Assembly: GCA_965207065.1 (NCBI GenBank)
Contig: OZ242260.1
Coordinates: 3,968,001-4,032,000 of the forward strand
DNA length: 64,000 nt
From: a bacterium
GTDB lineage: Bacteria; UBA8248
Reading direction: 5' to 3'
Below are positions 19,435 through 24,851 of this stretch, one piece after another. Position 1 is the first letter of the stretch. Each line of letters starts with the position of its first letter. A program made the position numbers and the translations under genes. The notes under the pieces were generated by a model. The model was not told the DNA's origin. It did not search any database and was given only the letters and a program-made list of their open reading frames with translations.

Positions 19435-19732
19435 TATTCCCACATCGGTAGAACGTAACTGTAGGGACAGGTCGCGACCTGTCCCTACGCGGCCGGTGGC
19501 CGGAATGACGAAGGGCGACCACGGGGATAGGCGCCTTCGAGGCGGGCGGCTACAGGTCGAACTTCCCGAAGAGGGGAGTTCGACGCCCCTACGGGTCCAC
19601 CGCGCCTGCACAACCCGCGGCGGGATGATATCCCCACATCGGTAGAACGTAACTGTAGGGACAGGTCGCGACCTGTCCCTACGGAATCGGTGGCCGGAAT
19701 GACGAAAGACAACCACAGAAGCGTCCACACAC

Positions 19733-19761
19733 AAAAAAAGCGGCCCCTCATCCGGGGCCGC
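19733..19761 (-). terminator. Rho-independent terminator closing the lipoprotein operon
   Basis: Stem gcggcccc (19740-19747) / ggggccgc (19754-19761), followed on the minus strand by T7 (A7 at 19733-19739). Confidence 0.8.
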
Positions 19762-19780
19762 CTCTTTGAATCCATCCCTC

Positions 19781-19964
19781 GGCGGGGTTGCCAAGCGAGT
19801 CCAAACCAGCTATAGAAACTGCTGGGGGTTACTCATTATTCCCTGCCCACGCTGAGAGGACTCAAACTCTGTCGCATGGGCCGGTACAATTTGCTCCCGA
19901 CGATGTAGAGCAACCAATGAGTAACCCCCAAAAGAAGTCACCCCCTCTTTCCCGGCAACCTGCC
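19781..19964 (-). ncRNA. Putative structured RNA (about 185 nt) in the 3' UTR of the lipoprotein operon
   Basis: Perfect 15-bp inverted repeat 19823-19837 / 19916-19930, two inner hairpins and an outer stem; the imperfect pairs are G-U on the minus strand but A-C mismatches on the plus strand. Confidence 0.55.
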
Positions 19965-20022
19965 CTTTCTTCCGTCTAGTTTTCATCAGGCCCGGCCCGC
20001 AGGCCAAAGGCGTCCTGCGCTC

Positions 20023-21702
20023 TTACCTGTGCGCCCCGAACGACCCGATGAAGGCGGTGCTTCCCGCCGGATTGCTTTGCTGTTTTACGTAAAAGGTTCC
20101 CGCAACCGAACCGGGAGCCTGAGGCGAGTACGTTGTTGTTATCGTGGTTTGTATGTTGGTCGGGTCCGTTCTATCCGTGTTTGTTGTTTGGGACCTTGTG
20201 ACCCTATGCCCAAAAAACTGGCCCTTCCAATCGCCACCGTAGGATTTTCCGTCAACCACGCCGACGGCCGTGCCAGCCGCAAAAGCGGGGTTTATATCAT
20301 CAACGAGGTTCTGTTTCTGCAGTTCGATGCTGCCATCGATTGATTGTCCGCCGGCGGTGATGTTCGTTACTTCGCCCTGAATGCTGCCCGTGTTCGTAGC
20401 TGTACCGGTTGGATTCCGGAACTCGGCGTTGAGCGTAACGTCCGCCGTGAAATAGCTTGTATCTCCACCCGCGAGGTAAGCGCCGTTCGCATTCCCGCTG
20501 TAGGTGGCCTTTACGTCTTTACCGTCGTCCACAATTGCGTCGATGGTGTTCACAGTAGTGGTTGCACAATTTCTTGTAGTACTTCCGTTCGCACCAGATG
20601 CTTCAATACCACTGCAGAAAGTCTGAGCAGTTGTTGCGATGGGCTGGCTCCCGTATGCGAATGCCGAAATCGTGGAAGCTCCAAAATTGGCGCCCACAGT
20701 AAGCCAGATGCCGGCGAGCAGGTAGTCGGTGTCGCGAAAATCCATTTCTGTGTACCGGTCATCGCCATCACTTAGATCAGTGTCTTCCACGACGTTTGTT
20801 CTTGTTCTTACATTGAGTCTCGTTTGCGTAATGTCAGTGTAGGCGTTGACGAAGGTGGAGCCGTCAGCGTTTTTCAGATCGAAGCCATGGGGGAGGCGGC
20901 CCGTTCCGGTGAGGGAGGGCGTCGTGCTGTCCGATGTAAGACCCTGTACCACAACCGTTCGCTGTCCGGTCACCCTGTCAGCGCCGGTCCCTGTATTCCC
21001 GGGGAATGTGGCGCAAGGCGCAGTACAAGTCTCGGTCTTATCATTGTTTATAGTCGTGACCATGGCCGAGCCAACGACAATGCTATCGGCTGTCACCGCG
21101 CCCAAAACAGCGTCTGCGAGGAGTTTGTTTTCTCTCACGTGCTTGATGAGCGAGGAGTTGTTCGTCAAGGCGATCACGTCCGCTTCCCGTTGTCTGCGAG
21201 CTTCCGCAACCGCGTTTACGGCGCTTTGGACCGCCGCCACAGCCGATTGTGCGCTTCTCAGGCGGGAAAGCGCCGCGTTCGCATCCGCGACCGCCATTTC
21301 CGCCGCCGCAGGCGTGGTGGCCGCATTCCCGGCGCTGCTCGCGCCTTCGACGCCCGCCAGGGCTGCCTGCGCGTCGCCGGCATGAGCGAGAGCGCTTGCT
21401 ATCTGATCCGCCGTAGCGTCTTCGTGAGTCTGCACCGCCGCCGCCGTCGAACTCGCCGTTTGCGCCAGATTACGGGCGTTAGAGACGATGCCTGCGAGCG
21501 TATTTCTCGCCTCGGCTATCCTTTCCTCATCCGTCGGCCCCGGCTCCATGCAGTCCGGGTACGTCCCGACTTGCTCCTGCGGGCATTCCATCACCGGCGT
21601 CGTCGCTGAGCCGCCGCCCCCGCCACCGCCGCAACCGGAGGCAAATGCCGCAATGCACACGACAAGTACCGCCAATCCAAAATATCTGAGCATTTTCATC
21701 AC
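20023..21702 (-). CDS. Surface lipoprotein with a C-terminal TbpB/HphA-like beta-barrel (Slam/T11SS cargo-like), copy 2
   Basis: Lipobox FASGC plus Gly run, Ala-rich helical stalk, ATYSGNANGAY, WKGQFFG, PGSVAGTF, terminal GSFGAHR. Confidence 0.75.
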   Translation of the reverse strand: MMKMLRYFGLAVLVVCIAAFASGCGGGGGGGSATTPVMECPQEQVGTYPDCMEPGPTDEERIAEARNTLAGIVSNARNLAQTASSTAAAVQTHEDATADQIASALAHAGDAQAALAGVEGASSAGNAATTPAAAEMAVADANAALSRLRSAQSAVAAVQSAVNAVAEARRQREADVIALTNNSSLIKHVRENKLLADAVLGAVTADSIVVGSAMVTTINNDKTETCTAPCATFPGNTGTGADRVTGQRTVVVQGLTSDSTTPSLTGTGRLPHGFDLKNADGSTFVNAYTDITQTRLNVRTRTNVVEDTDLSDGDDRYTEMDFRDTDYLLAGIWLTVGANFGASTISAFAYGSQPIATTAQTFCSGIEASGANGSTTRNCATTTVNTIDAIVDDGKDVKATYSGNANGAYLAGGDTSYFTADVTLNAEFRNPTGTATNTGSIQGEVTNITAGGQSIDGSIELQKQNLVDDINPAFAAGTAVGVVDGKSYGGDWKGQFFGHRVTRSQTTNTDRTDPTNIQTTITTTYSPQAPGSVAGTFYVKQQSNPAGSTAFIGSFGAHR

Positions 21703-21837
21703 TTGCCCCCTGAGGGTTACGTCCCCTTCCGGGAAAGAAGGGGGCGGGCGGTTGAAACCAGGTCCAATGAATCGTTTGCTTTGAGAACCCCCGGCCCCGG
21801 GCTCAGAGAGCCCGAGGCCGAAGGGAGTCGTGCGTTG

Positions 21838-23574
21838 TTACTGCCTGTGTGCGCCGAACGCGCCGATCAGGCCCATCTTGTTGTCCCGGCTGGCCGCGCC
21901 GAATGTTCCGGCAACACCCGTCGGGTGCGTGGTGGCCGTGCCGTTCGGACCGTATAGCTGACCGCCCCAGTTGCCCCTGAGACCGGCTCCACCGAGAACG
22001 CCGTCTGTAGCGCCTGTGAACCTTCCAGCTGCGCCATCTGTCTCAGTCAATTCGGCTTTCACCAGATTCAGGGAGCCGTCAACAGCTTGTCCGGCGGCCT
22101 TGACGTTCGTAATGCTTCCCGAGACCGTCGCCAGAAGAGCGGTGTTCGTTGCGCCGCCGAAGTTGACCTCGAGCGAGGCGTCCGCGTCGAAGTACTGGAC
22201 CATGCCGCCCGCTGTATAGAGGCCGGTGGCACTTCCTGCATACGAGGCTTTACCCGTGATAGATGCAGTAACCTCATACGGCTCATTGCCGTACACGAAG
22301 GCGCCTGCCTCGGCGGGATCGATTGGGATGGCATCGCCATTATCAGCTATCAGGGAGTCCCTGCTGGAAGCGGTTACCCACATACCCCAGGCCATGTAGT
22401 CTTCGTCGTGACCGGGATCTTTTCCTGTGGCGGTTCGGTATGTGTATCCAGTATTCTCTACAATTTTCCCGTCTTCACCCACGCTTATGGCACATGGGGT
22501 AGTGGCGGGATCTGCACAGTAAATTTGAGCCGTAACCGCGACATTGTTGTCAGTGGGATCCAAGTTGAGCAACACTTCAAAATTGCTGCCATCGCTCGGT
22601 ATATCACCCGTCAATACAGCAGTTCCTTCTAGATCTGCTGTTATTTCAGTTCCTGCTCCCGTATATATGTTCTTTTCAACCGACGCTTCGATGTCCGTGG
22701 TGACGACGAGATGAGATTTCGTATTGTCGCTTGTTGTGCGTACCAGATCTGCGGCTTCGTTTCCTTTGATATGGAAACGTGAAGGCTCTTCACCCGTCCG
22801 CATTCGATTTACCGCATCAGTACCGCCATGGTCAATCGTGAATGTTGATCCACCATCCTTATGCACCACGAATGAGACTCCATCTACTGCGCTTACATCA
22901 GTCGTAGACGTATAATTGGGAGGGGTACTGGTTGCGCGCTGGTTTAGCATACCTAAAGTAGTACCAGCAGTACCATGGGTAGGAGTACCAAATCCTCCGG
23001 CAACCGCTACCGCCAACCCTGCGGTAGCCGAATTTGTCATTGCCTTTGGCGGAGTCGAACCTTCCAGCTCGGCATTTTCGATGTCGTCGCCGTTGAGCAG
23101 CTTGTTCGACAGGTTGACAAGTACCAGGCTGCTCATGCCGGACGCCATCTCCGCGCTGGCTTGGGCCGTCTCGGCCGCCGTCTTATATTCCCCGGCCATC
23201 GCCGCAGTTTCGGCCATCGCCGCCGCGTCGGACGCCTCCTTGGCCGCGTCCGCATACATCTGCGCGTTGCCGGCCGCCACGGGGTCCACCGCGCCGCCCA
23301 CGGCAGCCATCGCCGCCATGTAGGCCGCCATGGCGGCTTCCTGCGCGCCGCTCAGGGCCATTTCTTCGTCAAGGTCCGCGGCGGAGGTGCAGGAACCGTC
23401 CGCGTTATACCGGCCGCCGTCACCTTCGCACATTTCCTGCGGGGTCGGGTCCGGCATGGCGGGCGGGTCCGGCGTCGCAGCCGTTCCCCCGCCGCCGCCG
23501 CAGCCGGCCAGCGTCAGCGCGAAGGCCGCCGCCAGCATGAATGAAAAGATTCTGTTTCCGTCAAATTTCATCAC
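21838..23574 (-). CDS. Surface lipoprotein with a C-terminal TbpB/HphA-like beta-barrel (Slam/T11SS cargo-like), copy 1
   Basis: Lipobox LAGC plus Gly run, Ala-rich stalk, YMAWGMW, ASYAGSATGLY, WGGQLYG, PTGVAGTF, terminal GAFGAHRQ; AGGAGG RBS. Confidence 0.78.
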   Translation of the reverse strand: MMKFDGNRIFSFMLAAAFALTLAGCGGGGGTAATPDPPAMPDPTPQEMCEGDGGRYNADGSCTSAADLDEEMALSGAQEAAMAAYMAAMAAVGGAVDPVAAGNAQMYADAAKEASDAAAMAETAAMAGEYKTAAETAQASAEMASGMSSLVLVNLSNKLLNGDDIENAELEGSTPPKAMTNSATAGLAVAVAGGFGTPTHGTAGTTLGMLNQRATSTPPNYTSTTDVSAVDGVSFVVHKDGGSTFTIDHGGTDAVNRMRTGEEPSRFHIKGNEAADLVRTTSDNTKSHLVVTTDIEASVEKNIYTGAGTEITADLEGTAVLTGDIPSDGSNFEVLLNLDPTDNNVAVTAQIYCADPATTPCAISVGEDGKIVENTGYTYRTATGKDPGHDEDYMAWGMWVTASSRDSLIADNGDAIPIDPAEAGAFVYGNEPYEVTASITGKASYAGSATGLYTAGGMVQYFDADASLEVNFGGATNTALLATVSGSITNVKAAGQAVDGSLNLVKAELTETDGAAGRFTGATDGVLGGAGLRGNWGGQLYGPNGTATTHPTGVAGTFGAASRDNKMGLIGAFGAHRQ

Positions 23575-24205
23575 TTTTGAGTCCTCCTAGTCTCGTGACA
23601 TTAAAGAGCTTTGCAACACAAAAAATCTGAAGTGTTTGGATTCGACCTCCTTTCCTTGACTTTCCGACTTTCCTTGAATCCTTCGTTATCGGGCTTCTTT
23701 CGTTTCGTCGTGTTTCAATTCATCGGAGCGGGGCCGGTTCGCGCGGCCGCCGGCCCGGACATCTGAGTCCGGGCCGATGGCCGGCTTATCCACGAGACTG
23801 GTGTGGGATGCGTTGCGAGTTTCATGATGGATTGAGTCCTCCCGCCTCGTGATATGAACCTTCTCCGGCCCGCGCCGGAATTCTCAAGTCTCCTTCTTCA
23901 GGCGCCTTCCGGCTTGCGTGCTTCCCTGGCCGGAGCGCCGCCCCGGCGAACGAAGCGCCGGGCGTCTTTCTGACAGGTTCACGAGACGGGAGAGGGTTTT
24001 GTGGCGTGCTGCATCATGGGTTGAGTCCTCTTAGCCTCGTGAGTTGCTGCTTCCCCGGCTCCCGCCGGGCTTTCCGTCTTTCTTCAGGACCGGAGCCGCC
24101 GCTTGCGCGAACGCGAAGCTCAGGGCCTGTGCCTGAATCGATTCACGAGACTGGAGAGGGTTTTGTGGCGTGCTGCATCCTGGGTTGAGTCCTCTAGCCT
24201 CGTGA
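23575..24205 (-). promoter_or_regulatory. Lipoprotein leader with three hairpin/RBS/uORF repeats (24143-24205, 23979-24042, 23791-23852) and a fourth half-copy that forms the gene's own RBS (23575-23598)
   Basis: Minus-strand consensus TCACGAG-N4-5-GAGGACTCAA in all four; the first three close with GTCTCGTG(A). Confidence 0.75.
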
Positions 24206-24367
24206 TTTCGTACTGCATCCGACCGGAATCTTTCTGGGTCATCGTCTTCCGGTCTGTCAAGCCATGCGCAAGTGCGGGCTTAGGGTTCCCGGCTCATCCA
24301 GCTTTCGCGGCGTGATCCGCGTCGTGTCGAGCGGGCGGCCCTGATAGCGACTACTCTCGCGTATTGC

Positions 24368-24409
24368 TTGACATATATGATAGTGTGGCAAGTATTCCGC
24401 TCTTGTCAA
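24368..24409. promoter_or_regulatory. Inverted pair of TTGACA boxes; probable promoter region for the lipoprotein leader (minus strand), possibly with a second promoter on the plus strand
   Basis: TTGACA at 24368-24373 (+) and at 24404-24409 (-) in an AT-richer patch; the -10 boxes are weak. Confidence 0.4.
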
Positions 24410-24509
24410 CCCTTTAATTGAACTTGCGCGCAACTTTCAATCCGTCCGCTTCCGCAGGGTGACGGATCGAGTATGAACCAACGGGGTTTGATGATCAAAC
24501 GGGAGGGGG

Positions 24510-24851
24510 CGTAGCCGGACAGCCCCCAGGAGGGGTTGTCCGGGGCCTCCGTGGTTGTCCTGAATGACAGAGGGGTTGTCCCTGCAATAAATGCGGTTTC
24601 GTTCATCATCGATCCCGTAGGGACAGGCCTCCGTGCCTGTCCTCATGGCAACCATCCTGAAAAAGGACAGGCACGGAGGCCTGTCCCTACGGTCGAAACC
24701 CAACCGACGAGGGAGGAACCGTGTTACTACAATCCCATCGCGGCGTGCGTGGGTGTGATGGTTTTGTAGGGGTCGCATATATGCGACCCGCATTGTGACG
24801 GCGAAAAAGCACGGGACGCATAATATGTCGGACATATATGTCCGACCTACA
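24510..24851. repeat. REP cluster containing several GTAG families, including the REP doublet 24617-24690
   Basis: gtagggacaggcctccgtgcctgtcc ... ggacaggcacggaggcctgtccctac; gtaggggtcgcatatatgcgaccc; gtcggacatatatgtccgacctac. Confidence 0.85.

Follow-up and report, generated by a model that had tools for sequence, protein, structure and literature searches.

Why would a bacterium place several copies of a gene's own ribosome-binding site (RBS) in the leader of that gene? The question is raised by a 64-kb stretch of DNA (contig OZ242260.1 of assembly GCA_965207065.1, positions 3,968,001 to 4,032,000; hereafter the window, whose own numbering is used for all coordinates unless a contig is named). 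Here, a lipoprotein gene on the minus strand is preceded by a leader of some 800 nucleotides (nt) with three hairpin units, each of which repeats the initiation site of the gene. We propose that the leader probably acts as an RNA switch, not described so far, that governs production of the lipoprotein. It would most likely be a new case of RNA structure controlling translation, with a mechanism deduced from sequence and folding. Our favoured mechanism, a cis-acting translational gate in which 'anti-RBS' strands of the upstream units are predicted to capture the real site, has in our judgement an even chance of being correct. The source genome (G000; 4.48 Mb, 96% complete) was compared with 40 relatives, giving a set of 41 genomes; counts for the genus refer to its 23 genomes.

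Decoy units and the real initiation site

An initial annotation of the locus had described three repeated units, A, B and C, and a fourth half-unit at the gene start, and the positions of all four were borne out when the minus strand was read. Unit A (24205-24143) begins with a 5' arm composed of two boxes, box 1 UCACGAG and box 2 GAGGACUCAA, ends with the 3' arm CCCUCUCCAGUCUCGUGA and carries a mini-open reading frame (mini-ORF), MQHATKPSPVS* (24178-24143). Unit B (24042-23979) is, like A, of the type that we call H, and its mini-ORF reads MMQHATKPSPVS* (24017-23979). Unit C (23852-23790) represents the proximal type, with a 3' arm that ends in UGG, not UGA, and its upstream ORF (uORF-C; 36 amino acids (aa), 23825-23715) reads on through the next hairpin; the three mini-ORFs all have the coordinates claimed for them. 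The half-unit at the real start, TCACGAGACTAGGAGGACTCAAAAGTGATG (23598-23569), forms the real initiation site, R, which reads UCACGAGACUAGGAGGACUCAAAA-GUG-AUG in the message and is without a 3' arm of its own.

These units form a single direct-repeat family in a repeat search (54 nt, 74-100% identical), and the pattern TCACGAG-N3-6-GAGGACTCAA has four matches in the window against 0.00 expected from 100 shuffles. Across the 4.48-Mb genome, all four matches to this pattern lie at the leader locus. The same holds for the three hits in G000 of a covariance model built on an alignment of 32 units (92 bits for A, 80.5 for B and 75.9 for C), while BLAST of the leader against its own genome returned only the leader itself and its internal repeats. 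The genome-wide scatter expected of an ordinary repetitive extragenic palindromic (REP) sequence, which the initial annotation had considered, was therefore not seen, and because all genome matches fall at a single locus, an interspersed repeat of the REP type or of the miniature inverted-repeat transposable element type is ruled out. No Rfam family matched the window at the gathering score. Relaxing the E value to 10 brought 15 weak matches in the window, none of them on the units: 12 microRNA models on the palindrome at 24605-24700, two matches in coding sequence and one (E 5.1) at 24218-24270, just upstream of unit A.

The leader is conserved among close relatives. When the 41 genomes were searched by BLAST, the leader was matched strongly, at 72-83% identity, in 11 further genus genomes; two other matches were short and weak. 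Strong hits of the covariance model (49-95 bits) fell on one orthologous locus only, present in 12 of the 23 genus genomes with two to four hits per genome, so that the number of units varies between species from two to four. All 12 orthologues that BLAST detected share the same core of R, CACGAGACTAGGAGGACTC; in the genome collection as a whole this core turned up in only 11 species representatives, and it is also present in two metagenome contigs with three units each. What lies behind the leader varies, a single gene of 510-1353 aa in some orthologues and a pair of genes in others; constant across the orthologues are the leader, the signal peptide and an element in the untranslated 3' region (3'-UTR), and the orientation of the operon is the same in the 11 operons seen whole. 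Within the leader, the arms are nearly invariant over 12 species, and loops and spacers diverge. Among DNA contigs from three runs of one study, one contig of 1147 nt in each of the runs X1 and X2, which are one sample, spans 23494-24640 unchanged, and no variants in unit number were seen in those contigs; contig joints at 19674-19684 and 24611-24664 sit in high-copy REP-like palindromes and are hence uninterpretable. A looser scan, CACGAG-N3-6-GAGGACTC (14 fixed bases), picked up at least 120 stretches in unrelated phyla, which we took for chance matches and discarded.

Pairing of the arms and a candidate translational gate

Read as mRNA, unit A has a folding energy of -20.0 kcal/mol (z score -3.2) and unit B one of -19.0 kcal/mol (z score -3.5), values that none of 200 shuffles equalled. 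Unit C is weaker (z -0.9), and the opposite strand of A, B and C does no better than shuffles (z -1.1, -1.6 and +0.2). When a 15-pair hairpin is laid on the 32-unit alignment, 90.6% of 434 cells can pair, compared with 40-50% when the partner is slid. The changes found in the arms are UA to UG (six), AU to GU (three), GC to GU (one) and GU to GC (two), and a two-sided change occurs in just one of the 434 cells. Such wobble-type variation fits an RNA read from the minus strand, not DNA. Each 3' arm has several pairing options, namely its own 5' arm, the 5' arm of the next unit or the real RBS; it seems probable that each arm serves more than one partner, which would explain why the arms are near-invariant.

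The real site differs from the decoys in a base that may matter for this competition. R carries A where every decoy inspected carries G, the two were never seen exchanged, and because of this A the stretch UCACGAGACU of R perfectly complements AGUCUCGUGA of the arms. For 35 of the 44 3' arms, a duplex with R is stronger than the one formed within the hairpin of that arm (mean -23.0 vs -21.7 kcal/mol), with R:arm duplexes ranging from -15 to -28 kcal/mol; the best partner of the distal arms is the 5' arm of the proximal unit. In partition-function folds of 12 whole leaders, box 1 of R was paired with an upstream 3' arm in every case, the summed pairing probabilities being 0.38 for the leader in the window, 0.46, 0.83 and 0.92 for three others and at least 0.996 for the other eight. 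The minimum-energy fold of the leader in the window is staggered, the 3' arm of A being paired with the 5' arm of B, that of B with the 5' arm of C and that of C with R (z -4.07 against 20 shuffles). In addition, the real GGAGG had in 11 of 11 tests a mean probability of being unpaired that lay below the mean of dinucleotide shuffles. Masking of box 1 of R is accordingly a robust prediction of the folding models, and the earlier suggestion that the half-unit, which has no arm of its own, could pair with the upstream arms found backing in both the duplex energies and the folds.

A gate could work as follows. Each decoy unit copies the two-box RBS, usually together with a start codon, and would fold it onto an anti-RBS 3' arm, and N+1 near-identical RBS strands would vie for N anti-RBS strands. 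R would be tuned to win this contest by an A-U pair where the decoys have G-U; as R would out-compete the decoys, it should at equilibrium be captured, keeping lipoprotein synthesis low and leaving one decoy RBS open. Occupation or removal of the 3' arms would free R, and the favoured candidates for the trigger would be ribosomes translating the mini-ORFs, which run exactly through the 3' arms, the H-type ORFs stopping at the UGA that ends the arm. The sequence comparisons establish the anatomy of the leader, its conservation, its confinement to one locus and its potential for pairing; for masking of R in vivo, and for the trigger that would release it, we offer a proposal.

The mini-ORFs themselves are unevenly constrained. 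An ATG is found at the spacing of the real start (4-15 nt after GAGG) in 34 of 41 units, and the H-type ORFs end in P(S/P)PVS-UGA, precisely where the arm ends; the mini-ORF tracts are C-rich and G-poor. No constraint is visible on the peptides of the distal units, and variable codons change at all three positions. The proximal-type unit has a uORF of 33-47 aa in 13 of 13 leaders, which runs across the arm and the conserved hairpin behind it and has (N)PTPVSWISRxPARxxxSGP as its conserved core. The hint of peptide-level constraint in the initial annotation was not borne out, and its picture of hairpin-locked mini-ORFs under such constraint stands in part at most, given the start-less units and the single-base, frame-breaking indels by which copies of a start-less unit differ in their C run. 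uORF-C shares TPV-WIS and a later GP with the SecM arrest peptide, given as FSTPVWISQAQGIRAGP in two reports (PMC10192921, PMC11669330). It is without the GIRAG of the motif F-x4-WI-x4-GIRAGP, and its spacing from WI to GP is two residues off; the resemblance was noticed after the fact and the same bases form RNA arms, so we treat it as a lead only.

Several points weigh against a gate of this kind. Masking of the Shine-Dalgarno (SD) sequence itself is not statistically secured in the models: with the last 470 nt, equally strong masking of GGAGG was reached by 4, 7, 2, 5, 0, 1 and 0 of 12 shuffles, and at full length by 1, 3, 1 and 4 of 8 shuffles. Where a C-type arm is the partner (G014 and G018), the SD core is only half covered, and the 3' arm that captures R differs among species. 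None of the 12 predicted pairs of the unit hairpin shows compensatory change; covariation, essentially absent, is thus no proof of the hairpin, and both arms are instead frozen. Seven of the 41 units have no ATG, GTG or TTG at the start position, and ribosomes therefore cannot clear those arms. The covariance model also scored weakly outside the locus, with three extra hits of 29-32 bits in G015 and one of 24 bits in G004, and the orthologous leaders are kin and so not independent samples. Among sequencing runs recorded as RNA, none contained the stretch 19700-24450, and for the transcription start and the single transcript we rely on inference.

Elements in the 3'-UTR and rival explanations

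At the other end of the operon, on the minus strand, lies a folded element of 108 nt (19823-19930) that we assign to a type II. Its outer stem of 15 bp is formed by 19930-19916 and 19837-19823, its P2 loop reads ACAUCGUCG (19906-19898), and the loop and stem of P4, UUUGAGUCCUC (19866-19856), are complementary to box 2; the complement of GAGGACTCAA that had been reported in the 3'-UTR is indeed present (19856-19865). The P4 hairpin exposes UUUGAGUC, which together with the following CUC pairs with GAGGACUCAAA at R over 11 of 11 nt. In each of the 11 orthologues with a contig that reaches the 3' end, and irrespective of which genes are present, an element stands behind the operon; nine further lipoprotein operons in G000 are followed by one as well. 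The pattern of the element has 79 matches in 17 of the 23 genus genomes. It has none in 28 genomes of the phylum outside the genus, so that covariation between P2 and box 1 gains no further diversity from them. The outer stem and P3 covary.

The P2 loop comes in two main forms. In type I it contains (C/U)UCGUG (65 of the 79 elements) and mostly reads CCUCGUGAU. That sequence is fully complementary to AUCACGAGG, a stretch found in 28 of 32 aligned decoys; this match takes in a conserved A that is not needed by the unit hairpin and a G that pairs there only as G-U. The type II loop, ACAUCGUCG, is found in 14 of the 79 elements, including every orthologue of the studied operon hit by the pattern. 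It mismatches box 1 of its own leader; its match is CGACGAUG, next to the SD at another lipoprotein locus, locus Y (G000:C1:599402-599670, minus strand; 529 aa, lipobox LVGC). Locus Y has two tandem RBS copies, CACGACGAT(G/A)AGGAGGACTCAC, 233 nt apart, the upstream one heading a degenerate 45-aa copy of the gene start; neither a complement in cis nor a 3' element was found at that locus. It occurs in 13 of the 23 genus genomes, among them all 12 with the decoy leader. Net energies, which are rough sums of duplex and opening costs, are (for box 1 and box 2, respectively) -8.3 and -5.9 kcal/mol for type I on R, +0.3 and -6.7 for type II on R, -8.9 and -5.4 for type II on Y, and -2.5 and -4.7 for type I on Y. 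Further RBSs with the same kind of box were observed at G000:C1:1865473 and 1343308 (GUCACGAAGAGGAGGACUCACGCCAUG and AUCACGAAAGAGGACUCAAACAUG), and P2 loops reading CCUUCGUGA occur in G018 and G013. A third contact, over 6-7 nt, may join the type II P2 loop to the leader loop AAGACGA(U/C)GACCC; both sides are invariant but for one base.

It may thus be that the units serve as a target or decoy array for the 3'-UTR elements of the lipoprotein family, with type I elements binding the leader in trans, P4 (UUUGAGUC and CUC) pairing with box 2 and P2 with box 1. Type I elements from paralogous operons would then hit R directly, the decoys would act as buffer or relay, the operon's own type II element would not bind, and expression of one class of operons would silence another. 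The retention of the element after 11 of 11 orthologous and nine further lipoprotein operons, its 79 matches in 17 of 23 genomes, its covarying outer stem and P3, its exposed P4 loop and the type-specific matches and net energies for R and Y all speak for this, and they lend weight to the link with the 3'-UTR RNA suggested in the initial annotation. Yet the case is one of complementarity throughout: both partners are invariant, without covariation between loop and box. Moreover, closed decoys are predicted to be poor targets (net +2.7 to -3.1 kcal/mol for box 1), five genomes have type I elements without a decoy leader, so that the P2 loop is not kept for that target alone, and the order of the loops is reversed relative to a simple antisense RNA, which would require a double kissing geometry. 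Nor would binding in trans explain the decoys' own 3' arms, and we consider it, though the leading rival, unlikely as the main role of the units; it shares a common core with the cis-acting gate, and both may hold. A broader scheme is also conceivable, an addressing code written in RNA only, in which the constant P4 loop would read the SD of the family and the variable P2 loop the box upstream of the SD in another operon. The studied operon (AUCACGAGG / UCACGAG) would be the target of type I (CCUCGUGAU), found on most paralogous operons, and locus Y (CGACGAUG) that of the operon's own type II element (ACAUCGUCG). With mRNAs that silence each other in ranked order, surface lipoprotein variants would be expressed one after another or to the exclusion of others, and the decoys, as a strand-displacement relay or buffer, would turn the binding of a foreign 3'-UTR into masking of the real RBS. 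We put this forward tentatively, as rather doubtful on present sequence comparisons.

Leaders of the erm/cat, secM and tnaC kind sense through a nascent peptide, and the mini-ORFs might likewise act by ribosome stalling, or by occupying C-rich tracts and so blocking Rho, with the hairpins only transmitting the signal. The proximal uORF with its conserved core in 13 of 13 leaders, its SecM-like TPV-WIS and GP, the H-type ORFs that end with the arm and the C-rich, G-poor tracts could be read in this way. The conserved residues, however, are encoded by the 3' arm and the next hairpin, so that a constraint on the RNA explains them equally well, and codons that vary at all three positions, seven start-less units of 41, frame-breaking indels and a SecM spacing that is off by two make peptide sensing improbable. 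Nor do we favour the view that the units are leftovers of tandem duplications of the 5' end of the gene, at most generic stabilising hairpins without switching. The variation of unit number between two and four, the tandem RBS copy with a degenerate gene start at locus Y and the similarity of paralogue 5' ends would suit such an origin, but near-invariant arms over 12 species in a leader otherwise 72-83% identical would not, nor would an R-specific A and a decoy-specific G that are never exchanged, and the 3' arm is absent from the 5' end of the gene, so that duplication by itself would not produce it; leftovers of this sort are, in our view, slightly less probable still than peptide sensors. 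The repeats might finally act as DNA, as operator, recombination or inversion sites with an inverted copy at the 3' end, as the initial annotation had allowed. An inverted GAGGACTCAA does lie at the other end of the operon and the unit number does vary among species. Against this, arm changes keep pairing only as G-U on one strand, the operon orientation is the same in 11 of 11 cases, the contig is unchanged across the leader in two DNA runs of one sample and the 3' copy lies within a covarying folded element, and a role as DNA is very improbable.

Two further candidates were set aside. A decoy for CsrA/RsmA, to which the GGA motifs had been likened, is unlikely since no CsrA gene (PF02599) was found in the 96%-complete G000 (the control was positive in three named genomes); in the consensus hairpin, moreover, the GG of GAGGA is paired with CCUC rather than held in a loop. 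An RNA thermometer of the fHbp, ROSE or fourU kind, in which a weak helix over the RBS melts within the physiological range, is unlikely on the predicted stability of the unit hairpins (-15.2 to -20 kcal/mol at 37 °C) and of the R:arm duplexes, the habitat temperature being our inference. Overall, the readings offered by the initial annotation have thus divided: a translational attenuator or relay and the link to the 3'-UTR have gained ground, and the CsrA decoy and the DNA sites have lost it.

The rest of the operon and comparison with known systems

Upstream of the units, a promoter-like motif, TTGACA (24409-24404)...CACTATCAT (24385-24377) on the minus strand, is kept in orthologous leaders and may act as the promoter; a scan for the sigma-70 consensus found no site, and this motif fails it. 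It is followed on the same strand by a 5' domain of about 115 nt (24256-24372), closed by GUCAAGC (24372-24366) and GCUUGAC (24262-24256), for which the consensus fold of 12 orthologues has 25 pairs, four with compensatory changes; in the closing stem UA is replaced by CG in five sequences and AU by GC in three. A covarying closing stem implies that the RNA is selected from its far 5' end, and this supports, without proving, a single long transcript that would start upstream of the units. The translational attenuator or relay first proposed from the sequence has therefore received support in silico from the alternative arm pairings and from a leader that is conserved as one piece behind the promoter-like motif and the covarying 5' domain. 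The domain contains the conserved GGGCCGCCCGCUC...GAGCGGGAACCC, has no Rfam match and could be a sensor domain in itself.

Between this domain and unit A, also on the minus strand, lies a hairpin, GACCGGAA...UUCCGGUC (24221-24254), with the loop AAGACGAUGACCC at 24248-24236; its stem is kept in 12 of 12 leaders, with one compensatory pair, and the loop is nearly invariant. A GC-rich hairpin, GGCCCGGAC/GUCCGGGCC (23752-23775, minus strand), just after unit C and inside uORF-C, has a stem that is kept in the alignment of 12 leaders and a variable loop of 6 nt.

The leader precedes two lipoprotein genes on the minus strand, the first of 578 aa (21838-23574; lipobox LAGC, C-terminus GAFGAHRQ) and the second of 559 aa (20023-21702; lipobox ASGC, C-terminus SFGAHR). 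A terminator-like GC hairpin with a T run (19733-19762, minus strand), read from the sequence and unlisted by a terminator scan, may close the operon transcript. Neither lipoprotein matched Pfam, NCBIfam or sequences of the PDB. In ESM-Atlas language-model features, residues 380-578 of the first (199 aa) lie nearest to TbpB_B_D (PF01298) clusters, at 0.92-0.94 with 186-197 shared features, and these features together with a C-terminal motif offer a lead that the lipoproteins are TbpB-like. About six further full-length paralogues are present in the genome. Contig depth rises four- to sevenfold at 23384-23555 and 21492-21835, the signal-peptide and lipobox stretches of the two genes, a rise that fits 5' coding ends common to paralogues.

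The operon is flanked on both sides (24615-24692 and 19652-19692) by a perfect palindrome with arms of 29 bp and related GTAGGGACAGG palindromes. Their contig depth is 10-20 times that of the operon, which marks them as high-copy and REP-like, and they draw the spurious microRNA matches in Rfam. The majority of the paralogous operons have another leader, with a (G/A)GAGUCCUC(C/G) anti-SD about 50 nt upstream of UCAGGAGGACUCACUAAAUGAUG (for example G000:C1: 61690-61750, 43761-43820, 108326-108385 and 121720-121778); there the SD would be masked by a simple 5'-UTR hairpin, with a predicted opening cost of 10.4 kcal/mol in one paralogue (61690). Downstream of the orthologous operon in G008 (L041 3400-5800), at least five near-identical small ORFs lie in tandem, starting MTTYEHLNLTIAFLSLLASYGG... 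and with repeated upstream regions.

How does this leader compare with known systems? In the ermC and cat attenuators, short leader ORFs lie in mutually exclusive stem-loops, one of which masks a downstream SD, and the pairing shifts when a ribosome occupies the leader ORF. The leader studied here resembles them in its leader ORFs with their own SD and, if the predicted folds hold, in its alternative pairing; it differs in having two to four repeated modules that copy the RBS over about 800 nt, some of them ORF-less, and in standing before a surface lipoprotein rather than a resistance enzyme. Decoy RNAs of the CsrB/RsmZ type present repeated hairpins with GGA, SD-like motifs, while the repeats studied here belong to the leader of an mRNA, reproduce about 22 nt of one particular RBS and are paired to a long complement. 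Long-range pairing of 5' and 3' ends, metastable folds and a leader ORF are known from hok/sok (hok/mok), and in OxyS-fhlA two loops contact two sites, one of them at the SD; unlike these, the studied system shows no toxin, antisense gene or separate small RNA gene.

The meningococcal lipoprotein fHbp is described as having two anti-RBS sequences in the coding region that melt gradually with temperature (PMC4999090). The likeness is that of a lipoprotein with anti-RBS sequences pairing to its RBS, the protein studied here being TbpB/fHbp-like by the ESM-Atlas lead only; the anti-RBS arms studied here lie upstream, are each already paired to a decoy RBS and, in a marine host, would seem too stable to work as a simple thermometer. 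The icaR mRNA of Staphylococcus aureus is described as having in its 3'-UTR a motif able to pair with its own SD region (PMC3868564); such pairing blocks initiation and yields a substrate for RNase III. Compared with this, UUUGAGUCCUC (19866-19856) matches GAGGACUCAAA at R in 11 of 11 nt, is kept in 11 of 11 operons and would lie on one transcript with it, but the element here is a folded module of about 105 nt, family-wide, with a second loop and box and with several copies of its target at the 5' end. In Sinorhizobium meliloti, upstream RBSs and uORFs are reported to act by translational coupling or RBS occlusion (PMC13285730). The resemblance lies in upstream sites with SD and start in a leader. 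The S. meliloti sites described there are single and near or overlapping the main RBS, while those studied here are 250-600 nt upstream, repeated and hairpin-locked with a strand that matches the main RBS.

None of the compared systems has repeated hairpin copies of an RBS whose spare strands match the real site, and full-text searches of the literature found no account of such a repeated RBS-copy leader. If the favoured gate is correct, it would provide a testable model for the way in which an uncultured, putative sponge symbiont sets the amounts of many fast-evolving surface lipoproteins or selects among them, these proteins being probably at the host interface; if the 3'-UTR elements take part, the operons would offer a compact natural system for cross-talk between mRNAs. 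The parts are short, and cell-free translation is feasible without culturing the organism. To the best of our knowledge, no strand-displacement design built from RBS copies has been described in nature. A multi-module RNA gate made by bacteria from copies of a gene's own RBS would thus, if real, most resemble engineered strand-displacement circuits.

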